64,000 nucleotides of DNA from Sphingomonadales bacterium (GTDB taxonomy: Bacteria > Pseudomonadota > Alphaproteobacteria > Sphingomonadales > Sphingomonadaceae), in the NCBI GenBank assembly GCA_031406495.1, contig JANOHL010000061.1, positions 202-64,201 of the forward strand. The letters run 5' to 3'. Shown piece by piece: positions 51,939-64,000 of the stretch. The position numbers and the translations under genes are program-made. The first letter of the stretch is position 1. Each line of letters begins with the position of its first letter. The notes under the pieces were generated by a model. It was not told the origin of the DNA. It saw only the letters and a program-made list of their open reading frames with translations, and made no database searches.

Positions 51939-52063
51939 CTTATGGTCGCCCTGTCACCGTAATTTGGCCGCAAACTAAACCGATAGACGCATCTAGGTTC
52001 AGGGGCAATATCGATGGCGCGTGCAAAGCACATGCGTCGGAAATGAGTTCCAGGAGTATCAAG

Positions 52064-52540
52064 ATGAGTAAACTACCTTTGTTTGTGGCCGTCGCCGCTG
52101 TTGCGCTCGTTTCGGGCGCTGCTGCTGCGGGTACTGCAATCAACAACGACTTGAGCCGCTGTAGCGCCGGTAATGGGCCAGCCGTGTTGGTCAGCGTGCA
52201 CGGCGTGAAGGAAGCGGCGGGCCGCATTCGCGTGCAGTCTTATCCTGCAACCAGTGGCGCGTGGCTGGCAAAGGGCCGGTGGATCAACCGCGTCGAAAGC
52301 CGTGCCAATGCCGGCACGATGAACTTTTGTGTGCCCGTTCCTGCGGCCGGTAAATATGGCATCGCCGTCCGGCATGATCGCAATGCCAACGGCAAAACCG
52401 ACATCAGCAAAGATGGCGGCGGGTTTTCGAACAATCCAAGCATCAATATCCTCAACCTTGGCAAACCCTCGGTCGGCAAGGTTGCGTTTTACGCAGGCAC
52501 CGGTGTGACGAAGATCACGATCAACCTGAAATATATGTGA
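52064..52540 (+). CDS. DUF2141 family secreted protein
   Basis: Signal peptide; GKYGIAVRHDRNANGKTD...GFSNNP motif. Confidence 0.82.
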   Translation: MSKLPLFVAVAAVALVSGAAAAGTAINNDLSRCSAGNGPAVLVSVHGVKEAAGRIRVQSYPATSGAWLAKGRWINRVESRANAGTMNFCVPVPAAGKYGIAVRHDRNANGKTDISKDGGGFSNNPSINILNLGKPSVGKVAFYAGTGVTKITINLKYM

Positions 52541-52550
52541 CGGACAACAT

Positions 52551-53522
52551 TTGGCATTAGTCGCGCTCCTTTCGAACCCCAATTCAACCGGCAACAGGTC
52601 GCTGTTGCCGGCGGTTCGATGCTACTGCGCCAAGAACCCCGACATCTTTCATTATGAAGTCGAGGAAATGGGCCAGATTGCGAAAGCGCTGGAGATGATC
52701 GCGCGGGTCAAGCCCAAGGTATTGGTTATCAACGGCGGCGACGGTACGGTCCAATCGGCGCTGACCGAGCTTTACCATGGCGGCCATTTTGAAGGCACGC
52801 CACCGCCGGTGGCCGTGTTGCCCAATGGAAAAACCAACCTGATCGCGCTCGATCTGGGTGCCGAGGGTAGCGCGCTTGAGGCGCTTGAGCGGATTGTCGA
52901 AGTCGCGAAGGGCGACCTATCCGAACATATTGTCGTGCGCGAACTGATTGCGCTGAGCGATGGTAGTGAGGGTGCGCGACCGGTGCTGGGAATGTTCCTG
53001 GGTGGCGCGGGTCTCGCCGAAACCATCCTGTACTGCCGCCACAAAATCTACCCGCTCGGCTTGCCCAATGGCTTGAGCCATTTCCTTGCGGCAATGGCGG
53101 TCATGTTTTCCGCTATTTTCGGGCTGAAGGCCGATTTTCTGCCCGCGCGCGCAAAACCGGTGAGCATATCGTTCATCCGCAAAGGCGAGTTGCAGGGCAT
53201 TTTCTCCGTGCTGATCGTTACCACGTTAGAAAAGCTGCTGCTTGGCGGACGTACGACGGAGATGAAAAAGCGCGGCCAAATGAAGTTCATGGCCGTCGAC
53301 CAACGCCCTTGGGCGATGATCCGCGTGATATTCGAATCGATAATCGGTCGTCTTGGCCGCCATGCGGTCGAGGGTATTCACATCGAGCAAGGCGATACCA
53401 TTCGCATCGACAGCGTTAAAAGCAGCGTCGTTCTGGATGGTGAGGTGTTCGAGGCGAACAGCCGCGCGCCAATCGTGCTACGCTCGACCGCGCCGGTGCC
53501 GTTCCTGCGGCTTGCGGCTTAA
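52551..53522 (+). CDS. Diacylglycerol-kinase-family lipid kinase (ceramide kinase CpgB-like)
   Basis: LSNPNS, INGGDGTV, LPNGKTNLIA and VLDGE motifs. Confidence 0.85.
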   Translation: MALVALLSNPNSTGNRSLLPAVRCYCAKNPDIFHYEVEEMGQIAKALEMIARVKPKVLVINGGDGTVQSALTELYHGGHFEGTPPPVAVLPNGKTNLIALDLGAEGSALEALERIVEVAKGDLSEHIVVRELIALSDGSEGARPVLGMFLGGAGLAETILYCRHKIYPLGLPNGLSHFLAAMAVMFSAIFGLKADFLPARAKPVSISFIRKGELQGIFSVLIVTTLEKLLLGGRTTEMKKRGQMKFMAVDQRPWAMIRVIFESIIGRLGRHAVEGIHIEQGDTIRIDSVKSSVVLDGEVFEANSRAPIVLRSTAPVPFLRLAA

Positions 53523-53562
53523 TCGCTTAACAACCACGCTCGAAAAACGCTAAGGGCTGCGC

Positions 53563-54486
53563 ATGCTCTCGCTCACCCAATTGGTAGCCGATGAATTGGC
53601 CGTGCCTGCCTTGCCGCAGGTTCAGGACTTTGCCGCGCGTATCGCGGGGCAGTATCCGGGCGCGGCAAGGGCGGTTCTGTTTTACGGGTCTTGCCTAAGG
53701 TCGGAGCAACTTGAAGGCCAGATGCTCGATTTCTACCTAATCGTATCCGACTATGACGCCGCCTATGACAAGAAATGGCTGGCAAAATGGAACCGGCGGC
53801 TGCCGCCCAATGTCTTTCCCTTCCAACATGAGGGCCTGATGGCCAAGGTCGCGGTGTTGAGCGAAGAGGATTTCCATGATCTCAACCGCCCCGCCGCGTC
53901 GGCAGTGTCGGTCTGGGCGCGCTTTGCCCAGCCTGCGCGGCTGGTCTGGGCGGCGGACGAGGCGGCGCGGCACATGGCGGCGCGCGCGATATCGGGTGCG
54001 GCACCGACATTGCTCAATGCCGCCTTGGCCTTTGTCGAACGTGAGGTCGATGTCCTCGATCTGTGGCAATCGGGTTTCCGGATGACCTACGACGCCGAAC
54101 TGCGTGCCGAGCGCAACGACCGGCCTGCATCGGTGATCGAGTTCGACCCCGAGCGTTACGAGACTTTCGGCCGCGCCGCGCTCCACCACACGATGATCGC
54201 AAACGAACTCCGGGCTGACAAAATCCATATCCTCCCCGACCCCGAAGGCCGGATCATGCAGGAACGGGGCCGCTGGCCCGCCTTAAGGCGTCGCGGCAAG
54301 ATGCTGACCGTGGCGAGGCTGGCGAAGGCGGCCTTCACCTATGCAGGCGGCATCGATTACCTCGCCTGGAAGGTAAACCGCCACGCCGGAACGCAGATCG
54401 CAATCAAGCCGTGGCAGCGGAAATGGCCGTTGGTGGCTGCGCTGTTTCTCGTGCCGAAGTTGCTGGTGAAGGGCGCCGTCAGATAA
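53563..54486 (+). CDS. Pol-beta-fold nucleotidyltransferase, Tam41-like (CpgA-like, tentative)
   Basis: VLFYGSCLR...MLDFYLIV resembles the Tam41 YGSG...DFI motif; directly after the kinase. Confidence 0.6.
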   Translation: MLSLTQLVADELAVPALPQVQDFAARIAGQYPGAARAVLFYGSCLRSEQLEGQMLDFYLIVSDYDAAYDKKWLAKWNRRLPPNVFPFQHEGLMAKVAVLSEEDFHDLNRPAASAVSVWARFAQPARLVWAADEAARHMAARAISGAAPTLLNAALAFVEREVDVLDLWQSGFRMTYDAELRAERNDRPASVIEFDPERYETFGRAALHHTMIANELRADKIHILPDPEGRIMQERGRWPALRRRGKMLTVARLAKAAFTYAGGIDYLAWKVNRHAGTQIAIKPWQRKWPLVAALFLVPKLLVKGAVR

Positions 54487-55678
54487 TCCCCACAGCCTTA
54501 CCCGCACGTTCAAACCGGCTAAGAATATCCGACACCTGCTCACTCGTATGCTCGGCACAAAGCGAGCAGCGCAGCAGCGTCATGCCAGCCGGGGTCGCCG
54601 GTGGCCGCGCCAGGTTCACGTAGAGCCCGTTCTCCAACAGCGCCTGCCACATCGCGGCCCCGCGTTCGAGGTCGGGCATGATGACCGCGATGATCGCGCT
54701 TTGCGCTTCGGGGGTGCCCAGCTGAAAGCCCAAATCGCGCAGGCCCTTGTGCAGCGTCTTTGAATTTTCCCACAGATGCGCGCGCTTGTTGCCGCCGTGC
54801 ATCAATTTGCGGATGCTGGTCGCCGAACAGGCGACAACGGCAGGTGGCAGGCTCGCGGTGAACACATAGGGGCGGCACACCAGCCGCATGATTTCGAACT
54901 TCGGATGGTTCGAAACGCAAAATCCGCCGACCGTACCGACCGACTTAGAAAACGTGCCGATGACGAAATCGACGTCGTCCAGAACGCCCTGCTCCTCGGC
55001 CACGCCGCGTCCGTTTTCACCGATAAAGCCCATCGAGTGCGCCTCGTCGACCAGCACCATCGCGCCCGCTTCTTTCGAAACACGGACCATTTCTTTGAGC
55101 GGCGCAACGTCGCCCATCATCGAATACACGCCCTCCAGCACCACCAATTTGCCCGCATCGGCAGGCAAACGCTTCAAACGTTTCTCCAGCGCCTCGACAT
55201 CATTGTGACGGAACGCAACAATCTCGGCATCGCCCATTTTGCAGCCGTCATAGATCGACGCATGGCTGTCGATATCGAGGATGACATAATCGCCCTTGCC
55301 CGCAATCGTGCTGATAATCCCCAGATTGGCCTGATAGCCGGTGGAGAATACCATCGCGTGTTTCATGTCGTAGAATTCTTTGAGCGCTTCTTCGCACTCT
55401 TTGTGGCCTTGAAATGTGCCGTTCAGAACGCGGCTGCCGGTGGTGCCAGCGCCAAATTCGTCGAGCGCCTTTTTGCCCGCTTCGATGACATCCTCATCGA
55501 AGGTCATGCCCATATAATTGTACGTGCCGAGCAGGATCGTTTCCTTGCCGTTGCAGACCGCGACGGTAGGCGAAAGCACTTGCTCCATCACCAGCGAAAA
55601 CGGGTCCATCACGCCAGTCGAGAGCAAGCCTTCGCGTTGCGCAATCAGCGGGTCGAATTTGGAAAACAGGTCTGTCAT
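54479..55678 (-). CDS. spt: Serine palmitoyltransferase
   Basis: LLGTYNYMG, GTTGSRVLNG, DEAHSMG and GTFSKSVGTVGG (PLP lysine); adjacent to an ACP. Confidence 0.93.
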   Translation of the reverse strand: MTDLFSKFDPLIAQREGLLSTGVMDPFSLVMEQVLSPTVAVCNGKETILLGTYNYMGMTFDEDVIEAGKKALDEFGAGTTGSRVLNGTFQGHKECEEALKEFYDMKHAMVFSTGYQANLGIISTIAGKGDYVILDIDSHASIYDGCKMGDAEIVAFRHNDVEALEKRLKRLPADAGKLVVLEGVYSMMGDVAPLKEMVRVSKEAGAMVLVDEAHSMGFIGENGRGVAEEQGVLDDVDFVIGTFSKSVGTVGGFCVSNHPKFEIMRLVCRPYVFTASLPPAVVACSATSIRKLMHGGNKRAHLWENSKTLHKGLRDLGFQLGTPEAQSAIIAVIMPDLERGAAMWQALLENGLYVNLARPPATPAGMTLLRCSLCAEHTSEQVSDILSRFERAGKAVGII

Positions 55679-55693
55679 ATTTCTTCCAAGTTT

Positions 55694-55773
55694 CCGTTCG
55701 CATCGAGCGAAGTCGAGATACCTCTAGTTCGCGCCCAGAAGCCCGGTGTCTCGACTGCGCTCGACACGAACGG
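55694..55773. repeat. REP doublet between acp and spt
   Basis: CCGTTCGCATCGAGCGAAGTCGAGA / TCTCGACTGCGCTCGACACGAACGG inverted arms. Confidence 0.85.
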
Positions 55774-55780
55774 GTTTGAG

Positions 55781-56023
55781 TTAATCCGTCAGCTTCATCA
55801 CAGCATCGACCAGCTGGCCGACATTTTCGATCTCGGCCTGCAGGTTCATCGTAATCACGATGTCGAACGCATCTTCAACCTCGGCAACGAAATCCATAAC
55901 GGTCAGGCTGTCCCATTCGAGGTCACCGGCAAACGTCGTCGCGTCGGCGATGGTCACGCCCTTTTTGTTGAACGGTTCGATCAAGCCCTTCAACCCCTCA
56001 AACATCTCGCTGCGGTCGGTCAT
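55781..56023 (-). CDS. Dedicated acyl carrier protein
   Basis: DLEWDSLTVM (phosphopantetheine Ser); 80 aa, acidic; upstream of spt. Confidence 0.92.
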   Translation of the reverse strand: MTDRSEMFEGLKGLIEPFNKKGVTIADATTFAGDLEWDSLTVMDFVAEVEDAFDIVITMNLQAEIENVGQLVDAVMKLTD

Positions 56024-56198
56024 GGTGCATTCCTATAATTTGGTTGCGGCCTTGTGCCGCTTCAGGGTCGCCTATGGCAAGCGATTAAGGCCGCAATTGG
56101 GCGACAATAGTGCCAGACAGGCACCCGCTGGCCAAGCCTTGCTGTGCAAAAGCAAAGCTGTCATGCTTTGCCAATCGAGGGCATTTCGGGAGAGGCAA

Positions 56199-56714
56199 AT
56201 GAGCGACGGGAAAAAATGGCCGGGCGAAGCCATATATATGGTCCGCACCATGCAGCAGCATCATGTGCAGCTAAGCATCATGGCCGATCAAAAGGCCAAT
56301 ATGCTGATCGGCGCGACCTTTGTCGTTTTGACACTCGCCATCGGGCAAAGCCAAAGCAGCAGCTTTTCGCTTCCCTTGGTCATATTGGCGGTGTCGGCAT
56401 TTATGTCCGCTGGCCTGGCCACAATGGCGGTGATGCCATCGACCGTGCCAAAACCTTCGAGGGGCAGCAACTGGCTATTCTTCGGCACATTTGCCCAGGT
56501 TGAAGAATCGGTATTTCATGAAAAAATAATGGGGAACCTTGGCGAACCGGAAGATGTCTTCAAGGCGATGTTGCATGATATCTATCAAATGGGCTGCATC
56601 CTCCAGACCAAAAAATACCGTTATCTGGGCTGGGCCTATCGCGCCTTTTTGGTTGGTTTGGTCACGACTTTTGTGACGTTCGTCTATGAACGATTTGCCG
56701 GACCGATATTATAG
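56199..56714 (+). CDS. Pycsar-effector-family (DUF5706/PycTM-like) membrane protein
   Basis: QLSIMADQKANMLI, two N-terminal TMs ending in MP, LFFG and KKYRYL..AY..F before a third TM; start MSDGKK after a GGAGAGG RBS. Confidence 0.75.
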   Translation: MSDGKKWPGEAIYMVRTMQQHHVQLSIMADQKANMLIGATFVVLTLAIGQSQSSSFSLPLVILAVSAFMSAGLATMAVMPSTVPKPSRGSNWLFFGTFAQVEESVFHEKIMGNLGEPEDVFKAMLHDIYQMGCILQTKKYRYLGWAYRAFLVGLVTTFVTFVYERFAGPIL

Positions 56715-57626
56715 CCACCCTTGTGATTTGTACCAGCGCGCGGTTTCCTTGAGGCCAGCGCGTGTTTCCACCTGCGGCGTCCAAAGCGCGGCGGGGGGTG
56801 CGGCTGTCTGGTCGATGGTCCAATCTGGGTGGCTGAGATAGCTGGCGCGGTCGGGCGTCAACTTGGCCTTTCGCTTGCGGAAAAGCCGGTCGCCATGTGC
56901 CGCGAGTTTGAGCAAGAAACGCGGTGCGTGGATGGTCGTCACGCGCCGCCCCAAGGCCCAGCCGATGGCACGGGCGAAACCGTCATGGCTCCAACCGTTT
57001 GGCGTGCCATCGTCCGCCTCGAATATCCGCGCGGTGGCATCGTCATGGGCTGGCAGCAGCGCCACCAGTAGCCGCGCCAGATCATCAACGTAAATCCATG
57101 ATCCACGCCCACGCGGCGGCAGCAACGCGAAGCCCTTTGCCGCCATCCGGAACATGTCAAACACATCATGATCGCCGGGGCCATAGACGCCGGGCGGACG
57201 AATGATGGTCCAGTCGAGCATCGAGGTGCCGACCAGCTTCTCGCCGCGCTTTTTGCTCGCACCGTACATCGACAATTCGGGGTGCTTGGCCGCGAGCGAT
57301 GAGACATGGACGAAGCGTATGATGCCTGCGTCTTTAGCGGCTGTGAGCATCTTTGCAGTGCCGGCCACATTACCTGCTTCAAAACCCGCCGCGTCAGGCA
57401 CGTTGACCACGCCCGCAACATGCAACACCGCGTTTGCACCGTCGCAGAGTGTCGCAAGGCTCGCCGCATCGTCCAGGCTACCGTGCACCCACGTGACACC
57501 AGCGCGCTTCGGCTGGTCCCGCCGGGTCAAAGCCCGCACTTGCCATCCGGCCTCTAGCAGCCGGTCGAGCGTCATCTTGCCGACAAAACCGGTCGCGCCG
57601 GTCAGCGCTACGACCTTACCCGTCAA
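56709..57626 (-). CDS. NAD(P)-dependent extended SDR, CerR-like (ceramide reductase)
   Basis: TGATGFVG, HVSSLAA, YGASK and RPPGVYGPGD; TTG start; location in the Spt locus. Confidence 0.8.
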   Translation of the reverse strand: MTGKVVALTGATGFVGKMTLDRLLEAGWQVRALTRRDQPKRAGVTWVHGSLDDAASLATLCDGANAVLHVAGVVNVPDAAGFEAGNVAGTAKMLTAAKDAGIIRFVHVSSLAAKHPELSMYGASKKRGEKLVGTSMLDWTIIRPPGVYGPGDHDVFDMFRMAAKGFALLPPRGRGSWIYVDDLARLLVALLPAHDDATARIFEADDGTPNGWSHDGFARAIGWALGRRVTTIHAPRFLLKLAAHGDRLFRKRKAKLTPDRASYLSHPDWTIDQTAAPPAALWTPQVETRAGLKETARWYKSQGWL

Positions 57627-60627: not shown

Positions 60628-61674
60628 ATGCGGTTAGCTTTGTTCTTTGTGGCGTTTTTCACGCTTTCCGCTTGCGGCGGAGGCGAGGCAAAGCGTGAGC
60701 GGCCGACTCCCTTGGTCACGGTCGAAGCAGTGGCGCCTCATGTTTTTGTCGATCGCTATGTGGCCGTCGGCACGGCAAACGCCAATGAGCAGGTTTCGGT
60801 GCGTGCGCCGGTTACCGAGCGGATAACGCAACTGGGTTTTTCCGATAGTTCGTTTGTCGCAAAAGGGCAGATGCTGGCGGTATTGGCGCAGGGCCAGGAA
60901 ACGGCGTCACTTGCCAGCGCCAAAGCGCGCGCGCGCGAGGCCGATCAGCAGCTTGCCCGCATGGCGGAATTACACCGGCGCGGCTTTGCGACCAATGCCA
61001 GTCTTGATGCGCAGACAGCCGTTGCAGCGGCAGCGCGCGGTGCCGCCGGTGAGGCCAACGCCTCAATAAGCGACCGCGTGGTGCGTGCGCCTTTTGCCGG
61101 ACAGGTGTCTTTACGCCGAATATCTGTTGGCGCGGTAGTCACTGCGGGCGATGAAATCGCGGTGGTTAGCGATATCAGCTCGATCAAGCTCGACTTCAGT
61201 ATCCCCGAAACAATGCTTGCCAGCGTGCGGGCGGGGCAGAATGTCACCGCCAAGGTAGCCGCGTTTCCCGATGTCGAGGCAGTCGGCAGGATTCAGGCGA
61301 TTGATCCGGTGGTCAATCCGCAAACTCGCACCGCGACATTGCGAGCCGTCCTGCCCAATCGTGGCGGGCGGTTCAAACCGGGAATGTTGATGAGCGTAAC
61401 GCTCGATTCTCGCGCGCGGTCATCGGTTGCGGTTCCTGAACTCGCGTTGGTGCGCGAAGGCGACAGCAGCTTTGTCTATGTCATTGGCGCAGATAACAAG
61501 GCGAAGCGGTTGCCGGTAAAGACCGGCGGTCGCGACGGCAATCTGGTCGAAATTACCGAAGGTTTGGCTGCTGGTGACAGGATCGTCACCGAAGGCGTGG
61601 TAAAACTGACCGACGGTGCAAAAGTGCGCACCGGCAAGCAGACTTCGCCCGCCCGAAAAAAGTCTCCCGGTTGA
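60628..61674 (+). CDS. RND efflux periplasmic adaptor (MFP) lipoprotein
   Basis: LSAC lipobox, lipoyl-like halves, VRAPFAG and KPGM. Confidence 0.92.
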   Translation: MRLALFFVAFFTLSACGGGEAKRERPTPLVTVEAVAPHVFVDRYVAVGTANANEQVSVRAPVTERITQLGFSDSSFVAKGQMLAVLAQGQETASLASAKARAREADQQLARMAELHRRGFATNASLDAQTAVAAAARGAAGEANASISDRVVRAPFAGQVSLRRISVGAVVTAGDEIAVVSDISSIKLDFSIPETMLASVRAGQNVTAKVAAFPDVEAVGRIQAIDPVVNPQTRTATLRAVLPNRGGRFKPGMLMSVTLDSRARSSVAVPELALVREGDSSFVYVIGADNKAKRLPVKTGGRDGNLVEITEGLAAGDRIVTEGVVKLTDGAKVRTGKQTSPARKKSPG

Positions 61675-61686
61675 TATCGCGGCCAA

Positions 61687-64000
61687 ATGACGATTTCTGA
61701 TCTCTCCGTCCGCAGACCAGTTTTCGCATCGGTCATTGCAATATTGATGGTCCTCGTCGGCATCGTCGGCTTTCTAAATCTGCCAGTCCGCGAATATCCC
61801 GATACCGAACCGCCGATTGTCTCGGTCGGCACCAGCTATACTGGCGCCGCTGCCAGCGTCGTCGAAACTCGGGTGACGCAGGTTCTGGAAAACGCGCTTG
61901 CGGGCGTCGAAGGTATCCAAACCATCACCTCGCGATCACGCGATGGCAGTTCGGACATCACCATCGAATTCGCCCCGGGACGAACCGTAGATAGCGCCGC
62001 CAATGATGTGCGTGACCGGGTTGGCGGCGTCGCCGATGACTTGCCCGAGGAAGTTCTGGCCCCTGAAGTCCGCAAGGTAGACGCCGACGCCTCGCCGATA
62101 TTGTTTCTGGTGGTATCGAAACCCGGTTGGTCGCGGCTCGAATTGAGTGACTATGTCGACCGCAATCTTGCCGACCGGTTTTCCGCATTGGACGGTGTTG
62201 CTCGCATTTTTATCGGCGGTGAGGCAAGGCCGTCGATGCGTGTTTGGCTGAAACCAGACCGGCTCGCGGCTTTAGGCCTGACACCCGCCGACATCGAGAC
62301 CGCGCTCAGGACACAGAATGTGGAGCTTCCCGCAGGGCGTCTTGAATCGGTCGAGCAAAACATAACGCTGCGCGTCAATCGTCCTTTCGCGACGACCGAA
62401 CAGTTCGCGCAGCTTGTCGTATCGCGCGGCACAGATGGCTATCTGGTCCGGCTCGGCGACGTCGCCCGCGTCGAGACGGGTGCCGAAAACCCTTATTCGG
62501 CATTCAGGCTAAATGGGGACTCCGCCCTTGGCATGGGCATTGTCCGGCAGTCGGGTGCCAATACGCTGTCAGTTGCCGAGGGCGCGAAAAATCTGGCCGA
62601 ACAGATCCGCCCGACATTGCCGCAAGGCATGACGATCACCGTTGGGGCCGACGACTCTCTGTTTATCAGCCGCGCCATCGACGGTGTATGGACGACGTTG
62701 GCTGAGGCGGCGGCCTTGGTTGTGCTGGTCATTTTCTTGTTTCTGGGAAGCTGGCGGGCGACGCTGATCCCAGCGATTACGGTACCGATCTGTCTTTTGG
62801 CAACTTTTGCGGTGCTATGGCTTCTCGGATTTTCAATCAATCTGCTGACTTTGCTGGCAATGGTGCTCGCCATCGGTCTGGTGGTCGATGACGCGATCGT
62901 AGTGCTGGAAAATGTCTACCACCGGATCGAGCAAGGCGAACAACCGCTGGTTGCTGCGGTCAAGGGAACCCAGCAGGTCGCGTTTGCGGTGATTTCAACG
63001 ACCATAGTGGTCTGTGCAGTGTTCGTGCCTGTCATGTTTTTGGCCGGTCAAACCGGATTATTGTTCCGCGAACTTGCCGCGGCGATGATCGCAGCCGTCG
63101 CTTTTTCCGGCTTCGTCGCGCTCAGCCTGGCACCGATGCTGTGCTCAAAATTGCTGCGTAACGAAGAACGCGGCAAGCTCGCTCGCTGGGTTGACGACCG
63201 GTTTCAGCGGGTCGAACAACGCTATGCCGACCTGCTCGCGCGGGTAATCGCCAAGCCTTTGACTGCAATTCTCGGCGTCGTGGCATTTCTGGCGGTCAGC
63301 GGTTTTCTGTTTACCACTTTGCAATCTGAGCTCGTTCCCGCCGAAGACGTGGGGATACTGAACGCCAATATCGCCGCCCCCGAAGGCACCGGCTATGCGG
63401 CGATGGACAAATATATGCTCGACGCTTCGAAGCCGATGTTGACCTTGGTCGATAAGGGCACGGTCCGCTCGATCATCCAGCGGACACCAGGCGGGTTTTC
63501 GGCGAGCGACGATTTCAATGGCGGGACATTTGTCGTGTTTCTGAAACCGTGGGAAGAACGCACAGAAACGACCGAGGATGTTGTCAATCAGGTCAACAAG
63601 ATATTGGCCGATCTGCCCGCGGTGCGGGGCAATGCGACCGCGCGTTCGTCAATCGGGCGCGGACGTGGGCAGCCGCTGAGTTTCGTTATCGCAGGTTCCA
63701 GCTATGAAGGGCTGAGCGCGGCGCGCGATCGCATATTGGCGGCTGCACGAGACAACCCCGGCATCGTTAACCTCGATTCCGATTATAAGGAAACCAAGCC
63801 GCAGATCCAGATCGACGTCGATACCGTTCGCGCCGGCGATCTCGGTGTATCGGTTGAGGCGGTCAGCCAGGCATTGCAGTCGTTGTTAGGCTCGCGCCGA
63901 GTGTCGACCTATGTCGACCGGGGTGAAGAATACCGTGTGATTGTTCAGGCCGATGCGGTCGACCGCGCTTCGCCGGAAAATCTGGCCGCCATTCAGGTGC
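61687..64000 (+). CDS. RND efflux permease (AcrB/MdtB-like), truncated by the window end
   Basis: Manual translation MTISDLSVRRPVFASV...LPVREYP; IGLVVDDAIVVLEN. Confidence 0.93.
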   Translation, partial: MTISDLSVRRPVFASVIAILMVLVGIVGFLNLPVREYPDTEPPIVSVGTSYTGAAASVVETRVTQVLENALAGVEGIQTITSRSRDGSSDITIEFAPGRTVDSAANDVRDRVGGVADDLPEEVLAPEVRKVDADASPILFLVVSKPGWSRLELSDYVDRNLADRFSALDGVARIFIGGEARPSMRVWLKPDRLAALGLTPADIETALRTQNVELPAGRLESVEQNITLRVNRPFATTEQFAQLVVSRGTDGYLVRLGDVARVETGAENPYSAFRLNGDSALGMGIVRQSGANTLSVAEGAKNLAEQIRPTLPQGMTITVGADDSLFISRAIDGVWTTLAEAAALVVLVIFLFLGSWRATLIPAITVPICLLATFAVLWLLGFSINLLTLLAMVLAIGLVVDDAIVVLENVYHRIEQGEQPLVAAVKGTQQVAFAVISTTIVVCAVFVPVMFLAGQTGLLFRELAAAMIAAVAFSGFVALSLAPMLCSKLLRNEERGKLARWVDDRFQRVEQRYADLLARVIAKPLTAILGVVAFLAVSGFLFTTLQSELVPAEDVGILNANIAAPEGTGYAAMDKYMLDASKPMLTLVDKGTVRSIIQRTPGGFSASDDFNGGTFVVFLKPWEERTETTEDVVNQVNKILADLPAVRGNATARSSIGRGRGQPLSFVIAGSSYEGLSAARDRILAAARDNPGIVNLDSDYKETKPQIQIDVDTVRAGDLGVSVEAVSQALQSLLGSRRVSTYVDRGEEYRVIVQADAVDRASPENLAAIQV

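Follow-up and report, generated by a model that had tools for sequence, protein, structure and literature searches.

The gene at positions 56199..56714 (+) of a 64,000-nt stretch of Sphingomonadales DNA (contig JANOHL010000061.1, positions 202 to 64,201; in the following the window) encodes a 171-aa membrane protein of the PycTM family, i.e., the family of the membrane effectors of the Pycsar defence systems, next to acyl carrier protein and serine palmitoyltransferase genes of sphingolipid synthesis (acpR, spt). We find that this PycTM gene is an old resident of the order, i.e., a vertically inherited core gene of Sphingomonadales with a distribution unlike that of a defence gene. It is not part of a Pycsar system: an adjacent cyclase and a patchy, defence-type distribution were both tested for, and neither was found. 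The reading we prefer, an even call in our judgement, is that of a housekeeping, probably nucleotide-gated, oligomeric membrane protein with three transmembrane (TM) helices, which acts as a resident core component and belongs neither to Pycsar nor to the cyclic-oligonucleotide-based anti-phage signalling systems (CBASS). A specific tie to sphingolipid synthesis is suggested by the gene's position only.

The frame at 56199..56714 is coding. It forms an intact open reading frame (ORF) from ATG to TAG, with GGGAGAGG as ribosome-binding site 4-11 nt 5' of the ATG, and the other five frames across it contain 3-8 stops each. The codon-usage score of the frame is 0.205 per codon compared to 0.225 +/- 0.063 for the window genes. 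With regard to orthologues, the ratio of nonsynonymous to synonymous substitution rates (dN/dS) is 0.04-0.13, i.e., the gene is under strong purifying selection, and this also holds for relocated copies (see below). An earlier note on the window had described the gene's GC content as native. This is correct for codon usage and for the third codon positions (GC3 of 0.63 vs 0.68 +/- 0.05 for window genes, within one standard deviation) and wrong for the total GC, which is 50.8% vs 58.7 +/- 2.9%. Since GC3 and codon usage are native, the low total reflects the amino-acid composition of a membrane protein and not a foreign origin. For the window organism, a search of sequencing runs returned DNA metagenomes only (freshwater sediment).

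The encoded protein is a genuine, full-length member of the PycTM / pJV1-SpdB3 three-TM family. Pfam model PF18967 (PycTM) matches with E=9.3e-23 (81.1 bits vs a gathering score of 27.2), and the PycTM models of PADLOC match at 3.3e-14, 5.2e-11 and 3e-4, covering aa 28-161 of 171. PADLOC's CBASS '2TM effector' models match as well (PDLC00700, 7.8e-11), and NCBIfam holds no model for the protein. The hidden Markov model (HMM) search thus bears out the family assignment of the earlier note. The assignment is not new, as RefSeq already labels the orthologues 'Pycsar system effector family protein'. A PDB sequence search returned only a chance match to LSm2 (E=0.26), and Foldseek against PDB and BFVD gave nothing at E<=0.001, where the PDB set searched held no PycTM/PucTM structure.

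In length (about 150-200 aa in the family) and layout, i.e., three TM helices with a helical cytosolic stretch that separates TM2 from TM3, the protein is like other PycTM proteins. The best 19-aa Kyte-Doolittle windows mark three hydrophobic helices (aa 33-51, 60-78 and 149-167), and the AlphaFold model is all-helical with helices at aa 9-50, 58-78, 103-113 and 117-167 (predicted local distance difference test, pLDDT, 72; predicted template modelling score, pTM, 0.58). ORF, hydropathy and model hence agree with the 171-aa, three-TM protein described earlier, including its motifs ADQKANMLI (within MADQKANMLI, aa 28-37) and KKYRYL..AY (KKYRYLGWAY, aa 138-147). TM1 spans aa 33-51 (56295..56351, +; hydropathy 1.52) within AlphaFold helix 9-50. 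TM2 (aa 58-78; 56370..56432, +; hydropathy 2.18) coincides with helix 58-78, ends in the invariant P80 and would be the pore-lining helix, as in EcPucTM (bioRxiv 10.64898/2026.08.12.744502). The cytosolic helical insert between TM2 and TM3 (aa 81-141; 56439..56621, +) is supported by alignments and charge and contains AlphaFold helix 103-113 and the helix from 117 onward. TM3 (aa 142-167; 56622..56699, +; hydropathy 1.44) lies in helix 117-167. The insert holds seven Lys/Arg residues vs zero in the TM1-TM2 loop, such that the positive-inside rule is satisfied. The concentration of Lys and Arg in N-terminus and insert therefore implies an N-in topology.

Residue conservation was scored in 76 orthologues, 144 diverse representatives and the cyclase-linked HD fusions discussed below. 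According to the alignments, the most conserved motif is R16-N34 (RTmQQHHVQLSxMADQKAN; 56244..56300, +), which lies on the cytosolic N-helix just before TM1. H21, H22, L25, S26, M28, A29, D30, K32 and A33 are invariant in the 76 orthologues, and invariant positions of the insert are N91, F94, F95, F98, E103, D127, Q130, G132, K138 and K139. The protein also presents the family-wide residues, i.e., R16, H22, A29-D30-x-K32-x-N34, P80, LFFG.F, D127, G132 and KYR. R, H and AD.K.N are retained in homologues from Arenimonas, Leptospira and Marinicella and in the cyclase-linked HD-PycTM fusions.

To describe the gene's distribution, loci were sampled by pattern-seeded searches (best 80 matches, one genome per species), and gene presence was scored by tblastn and HMMs on six-frame ORFs. 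Loci and not whole genomes were surveyed, i.e., the percentages given below describe a sample and are no census. A protein-side search of species-representative genomes yielded 63 loci (named L plus number in the following), among them 21 from Sphingomonadales. In 18/21, the PycTM gene is divergent from acp-spt, down to 43% identity (Sphingorhabdus, Parasphingorhabdus and Sphingobium are among them). Searching from the Spt side, PycTM was found in the same place in 41 of the best 80 loci, which include Sphingopyxis, Parasphingorhabdus, Novosphingobium, Blastomonas, Sphingosinicella and Allopontixanthobacter. The same arrangement is present in 13/13 further Sphingomonadales loci (Polymorphobacter, Erythrobacter and Sphingomonas paucimobilis among them) from an independent DNA-motif scan, which used a degenerate pattern for MADQKANILI, the alignment of distant representatives being too diverse as a seed. 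Metagenomic contigs of close relatives show this adjacency in 10/11 cases.

Pooled over all Sphingomonadales loci with enough flank, PycTM adjoins acp in 61/98. The divergent gap between both genes has a median of 176 bp (range 81-214) over these 61 loci and measures 175 bp in the window; in 38 of the 61, cerR, proB and obg are no longer adjacent. Synteny with spt across Sphingomonadales, which the earlier note had proposed to examine, is thus established, and the gene is neither sporadic nor unlinked. Furthermore, the pairwise distances of PycTM and Spt co-vary (Mantel r=0.69; 0/999 permutations as high). Within 4.5 kb of acp-spt, PycTM is present in 59% of the loci, bona fide sphingolipid genes in 49-71% and the unrelated proB and obg in 47-48%. 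Among 50,697 phage records we observe zero matches to the PycTM protein, and plasmid matches amount to 2/72,556, both on Bacteroidota replicons.

No cyclase accompanies the gene. PADLOC, run on all 61 called genes of the window, reports neither a PycC nor a CD-NTase (cGAS/DncV-like nucleotidyltransferase), and its PycTM/effector models match the PycTM gene only. A six-frame phmmer search of the window with two divergent class III cyclase domains as queries gave nothing at E<=10. Both results confirm what had been noted earlier, i.e., that there is no pyrimidine cyclase in the window. Likewise, no class III cyclase lies directly beside PycTM in the spt-linked relatives. The nearest one is about 6 kb off, in L002; we rejected it as a partner because this adenylate cyclase is unrelated, lies past other genes and is without a counterpart in the window.

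Absence from the spt locus does not necessarily mean loss. In the relatives with the most similar Spt (L064-L075, 92-97% identical), PycTM is missing from acp-spt, and in one Sphingorhabdus lineage the gene has moved rather than been lost: the complete genome GE-11 carries spt at 2.12 Mb (L071) and an intact PycTM gene at 0.37 Mb (L005), i.e., 1.75 Mb apart, upstream of a thiamine pyrophosphate enzyme and an aldehyde dehydrogenase and with no cyclase there. In L003, L004 and L214, the relocated gene is directly downstream of a 779-aa GAF-GAF-PAS class III cyclase, which, read by eye, presumably has the Lys and Asp residues that characterise adenylate cyclases. The cyclase-adjacent copy of L003 (L003:7017-7456, the same as L203:6341-6780) shows a truncation and a frameshift, has 85% identity to the L004/L005 type and is followed by an intact gene of the window type. 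Given this pairing of a decayed with an intact copy, it appears that one working copy is kept, whichever it is. The double copy itself looks like a tandem gene replacement or a chimeric assembly of a metagenome-assembled genome.

Nine orthologues of the GAF-GAF-PAS cyclase in other genera have no PycTM neighbour. A functional pairing of both proteins was considered and down-weighted in view of these nine orthologues and of the GE-11 gene without cyclase. On PADLOC's 'PycC' model this cyclase (L003:4677-7016) scores 2e-24, which is better than for the cyclases linked to PycTM fusions. Since the PycC models cannot separate pyrimidine cyclases from ordinary class III cyclases, we did not use them to call PycC.

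In an exhaustive search with a profile, 1916 representative clusters pass E<=1e-3 and 122 of them pass E<=1e-30. The proteins listed from this search are 98-236 aa long, mostly 150-220 aa, and therefore look stand-alone. A separate profile search for homologues gave a count of 2669 and listed nearly the same proteins (at least 120) as the homologue search before it. Outside Sphingomonadales, close homologues with 39-46% identity belong to the core genes of Arenimonas, Leptospira and Marinicella. In 36/41 loci, mostly of Arenimonas, PycTM is immediately upstream of prmC, usually after oxyR-ahpCF; these Arenimonas-type loci are L023-L063 (e.g., L055:7974-8486), where prmC encodes the release-factor methyltransferase. 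Leptospira and Marinicella each show a fixed, genus-specific context, namely DNA polymerase B and a LytTR regulator in the former and a rhomboid in the latter. No spt was found within 4-8 kb of the homologues in Arenimonas, Leptospira, Marinicella and Chitinophagaceae, and the 82 immediate PycTM neighbours show no recurrent cyclase family.

A cyclase pattern emerged from a wider iterative search of all 217 loci, in Bacteroidota. In the Chitinophagaceae-type loci L162, L163, L185 and L200, an HD-PycTM fusion (~405 aa) is followed on the same strand by ppk1 and then a class III cyclase (~358 aa). A fifth locus (L161) has fusion and ppk1, and its sequence ends before the cyclase position. L193 has a stand-alone PycTM followed by ppk1 and cyclase, and on the Fulvitalea megaplasmid pFA2 (L144) an HD-PycTM fusion is followed by the cyclase. 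This gene set may be an undescribed module that ties cyclic nucleotides and polyphosphate to the membrane, or a Pycsar variant.

Given these observations, we propose the following for the window protein as a housekeeping, probably nucleotide-gated membrane protein. It would assemble as an oligomeric ring in the inner membrane, as suggested by the hexamer of EcPucTM and the self-interaction of SpdB3 (see below), and a small cytosolic ligand on the conserved N-helix and the insert would set the state of the ring. The likeliest ligand class would be a cyclic mononucleotide, the product of a class III cyclase whose gene lies elsewhere in the genome; we propose it because members of the same clade adjoin class III cyclases in Bacteroidota and in a Sphingorhabdus sub-lineage and because of the HD phosphohydrolase fusions. 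The output is probably envelope or membrane homeostasis.

Several points weigh against this proposal. Most loci of the PycTM clade have no cyclase within 4-8 kb, and the three Sphingorhabdus cyclase-PycTM cases represent a single evolutionary event, since the nine cyclase orthologues elsewhere lack PycTM. Ligand, oligomer and pore of the window protein are what we infer from family precedent, and the confidence of its AlphaFold model is moderate (pLDDT 72, pTM 0.58). A constitutively present pore-former would, moreover, need tight control. Finally, a role in sphingolipid synthesis is not established, because PycTM is not more strongly syntenic with spt than proB and obg are.

The best-surviving alternative, rather unlikely in our view, is a conserved small membrane protein unrelated to both nucleotides and sphingolipids, for which PF18967 marks a shared three-TM scaffold and the position at spt is an inherited accident. 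The locus can indeed be seen as a slowly rearranging block obg-proB-cerR-X-acpR-spt (with PycTM as X), in which proB and obg show linkages of 47-48% vs 59% for PycTM. The gene can also quit the spt locus and yet survive, and the neighbours elsewhere are heterogeneous (prmC, DNA polymerase B, LytTR regulator, rhomboid, cation-efflux protein). On the other hand, the residues conserved here match those conserved in the cyclase-linked fusions, class III cyclases recur beside clade members in two unrelated phyla, and the HD phosphohydrolase fusions point to nucleotide chemistry.

A dedicated component of Sphingomonadales sphingolipid synthesis is a less convincing explanation, which we consider unlikely. 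The protein would then act as an inner-membrane translocator of oxidised ceramide, as the partner of the periplasmic CerR in the membrane or, in the manner of ORMDL, as a regulator of Spt. This is in accordance with the tight head-to-head spacing to acpR-spt (median 176 bp, range 81-214, 61 loci), with the gene's staying at acpR-spt in the 38 loci that no longer have cerR, proB and obg beside it, and with the way the gene is wedged against cerR with overlapping stops. The literature states that neither a flippase nor an electron-transfer partner of CerR has been found (PMC11087976). Published comparisons began from 17 Caulobacter genes (PMC11324152), such that a gene specific to Sphingomonadales would be missed. 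Against this, the 39-46% identical homologues form part of the core of Arenimonas, Leptospira and Marinicella although spt is not nearby, PycTM is missing from 37/98 spt loci, and relocated copies are under equal constraint. In addition, PycTM comes with an upstream block of its own, and L064 lacks the gene cleanly but keeps the upstream element of acp. That is, close homologues in lineages without nearby spt argue against a sphingolipid-specific function.

Combining both ideas, a nucleotide- or lipid-gated ring of PycTM fold may act in sphingolipid biology, be it as translocator of oxidised ceramide toward the periplasmic CerR, as CerR partner or as ORMDL-like brake on Spt. We judge this version quite improbable. 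If true, the Pycsar 'killing pore' would be the weaponised relative of a housekeeping membrane gate under cyclic-nucleotide control. The earlier note had put forward a related option, i.e., a domesticated PycTM fold that senses a cytidine nucleotide or CDP-lipid. The domesticated, spt-syntenic pattern is what we find; the sensing part finds no support, as the linkage to spt is about that of proB/obg and homologues are core genes without nearby spt.

We regard it as very unlikely that the gene is the orphan effector of a split Pycsar system, where a distant PycC makes cCMP or cUMP upon infection and PycTM kills the cell. In favour of it, the PycTM model match is near full-length, and the 64-kb window shows only part of the genome. 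Vertical inheritance, an order-wide fixed position and purifying selection contradict this idea, as do the absence from phages and near absence from plasmids. There are no defence genes nearby, only weak CSD, PtuB-like and QatC PADLOC matches elsewhere in the window, and canonical Pycsar has cyclase and effector within one operon (PMC11224242, PMC13069673). Of the earlier option of an effector for a cyclase in trans, the split-defence form is hence unlikely because of the vertical inheritance; a cyclase in trans as a mechanism gains some support from the cyclase linkage in related clades.

A CBASS-like pairing with the nucleotidyltransferase (NTase)-like orf307, 1.7 kb away, had also been offered and is effectively refuted: the match to the '2TM effector' model PDLC00700 (7.8e-11) and the faint DUF294 NTase hint of orf307 (E=0.14) speak for it, but the window has no CD-NTase, orf307 is hit by no PADLOC model at E<=1, those for CD-NTases included, it follows a ceramide-kinase-like gene as cpgC follows cpgB in Caulobacter (PMC11324152), spt and acp separate it from PycTM in a different transcription unit, and many loci have PycTM without orf307 nearby and vice versa.

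We now turn to the surroundings of the housekeeping candidate. The divergent neighbour is acpR (55781..56023, -), a specialised acyl carrier protein (Pfam PP-binding; role according to PMC9386255), followed by spt (54479..55678, -; Pfam Aminotran_1_2, 3.6e-53), whose product is 84-97% identical to Sphingomonadales Spt. On the other side, a cerR-like NAD-dependent epimerase/reductase gene (56709..57626, -; Pfam Epimerase 1.5e-24 and synteny) is convergent. Its stop region overlaps that of PycTM by exactly 6 nt (TTATAG), and the same is seen in L146 and L149-L152. Both the divergence from acp and the 6-nt stop overlap had been noted before and are confirmed in the sequence.

Two blocks are conserved between acpR and PycTM. 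The first, CCTTGCTGTGCAAAAGCAAAGCTGTCATGCTTT (TTGCTG-N17-CATGCT; 56137..56169, +), is conserved in PycTM-bearing relatives and may be the PycTM gene's own promoter; a sigma-70 consensus scan of 55700-56900 called no promoter, this block included. The second is the 33-nt block CTATGGCAAGCGATTAAGGCCGCAATTGGGCGA (56072..56104, no strand assigned), which is conserved across genera, even in relatives with no more than 57-61% identity in PycTM. The PycTM-less L064 misses exactly what corresponds to window positions 56105-56712, the first block included, and retains 56072-56104. The latter block thus belongs to acpR-spt and not to PycTM, and we consider it a candidate regulatory element of acpR-spt. 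It is overlapped by a perfect 10-nt inverted repeat (TTGCGGCCTT / AAGGCCGCAA, at 56044-56053 and 56087-56096) upstream of acpR, for which relatives show no covariation. An Rfam scan of 55500-57000 found nothing.

Convergent on spt, a unit at 52043-54486 encodes a DUF2141 protein, a diacylglycerol kinase (DAGK)-type lipid kinase and orf307 (53563..54486). The latter has no Pfam family beyond the faint DUF294 similarity mentioned above and directly follows the DAGK-type, ceramide-kinase-like gene. Beside spt in Caulobacter, cpgC (CC_1161) follows the ceramide kinase gene cpgB (CC_1160), both for ceramide phosphoglycerate synthesis, and CC_1161 is suspected to be an activating enzyme resembling CDP-diacylglycerol synthase (PMC11324152). 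Since it occupies the cpgC position after a lipid kinase, orf307 is a gene for sphingolipid head groups rather than for a CBASS cyclase. In a metagenomic relative, a BrnT/BrnA toxin-antitoxin pair sits between the orf307 homologue and spt (L146:1884-2430). Elsewhere in the window, PADLOC reports weak matches to CSD_V (cold-shock domain, 3.8e-10), a PtuB-like model (2.8e-07), QatC (8e-4) and PDC-M01B (9e-4). The genes after obg differ from the window in the relatives L002, L146 and L149. At the end of the window (60628-63999) lies a gene for an RND efflux membrane-fusion protein, and the large ORF after it, presumably the RND pump, continues beyond the window.

With regard to novelty, our literature search found no description of a PycTM clade that is cyclase-less and core, of a PycTM gene embedded in an acpR-spt neighbourhood across an order, or of the related HD/ppk1/cyclase operons; nor did it find the window gene mentioned in a sphingolipid context. 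As the clade behaves as core and lacks a neighbouring cyclase, it would be a mistake to count its genes among orphan defence effectors. The clade also suggests that there are housekeeping relatives of the PycTM pore, of which some are still connected with class III cyclases, HD phosphohydrolases and polyphosphate kinase, and such relatives are the natural place to seek the origin of the effectors and their ligand-binding site. The sphingolipid field, in turn, lacks an inner-membrane flippase and a membrane partner of the periplasmic CerR (PMC11087976). The window gene, strongly conserved and encoding an inner-membrane protein, faces acpR-spt head-to-head in about 60% of the Sphingomonadales loci sampled, often with cerR on its other side, and is a sphingolipid candidate by position only.

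Among known systems, the eukaryotic ORMDL/Orm proteins are small membrane regulators of serine palmitoyltransferase, and we refer to them as an analogy only. Like the window protein, ORMDL is a small multi-pass membrane protein genetically tied to this enzyme. In contrast, Pfam assigned the window protein to PycTM only, and no ORMDL complex is among the 50 Foldseek PDB matches listed. Furthermore, bacterial Spt is soluble (PMC11087976). For SpdB3 of the Streptomyces conjugative plasmids pJV1 and pSVH1, self-interaction and a high toxicity upon over-expression in E. coli are reported (PMC4447253). The family takes its name from SpdB3, the PycTM/PucTM architecture having been termed 'pJV1-SpdB3 family 3TM' (bioRxiv 10.64898/2026.08.12.744502). 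Likened by description, the self-interaction and toxicity of SpdB3 fit an oligomeric, membrane-active protein; unlike the window gene, SpdB3 is plasmid-borne and acts in intramycelial plasmid spreading. The CBASS '2TM' effectors (PDLC00700, PDLC00668) share HMM similarity over TM2, insert and TM3 (7.8e-11), but the window gene has no CD-NTase partner.

The Pycsar PycTM effectors (PF18967; PADLOC PDLC02363-02365) are alike in HMM family, length (about 160-170 aa), the match over aa 28-161 and three TM helices with a cytosolic helical insert. They differ in that the window gene has no adjacent PycC, is not sporadic, lies in no defence island and keeps a fixed position. The sole structural precedent is EcPucTM from Pucsar, the cGMP-producing branch, for which cryo-EM revealed a hexameric cylinder with TM2 lining a ~15 A channel (bioRxiv 10.64898/2026.08.12.744502). 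By description it is of the same 'pJV1-SpdB3 family 3TM' kind; in contrast to the window gene, it is encoded with its own cyclase and protects against phages. The HD-PycTM fusions of Chitinophagaceae and Fulvitalea, finally, have an N-terminal HD phosphohydrolase domain and a cyclase in cis, neither of which the window protein has. They share with it the motifs R..H..L..AD.K.N, LFFG.F, D.Y..G and KYR, and the Chitinophagaceae set is, like the window gene, chromosomal and conserved across genera.

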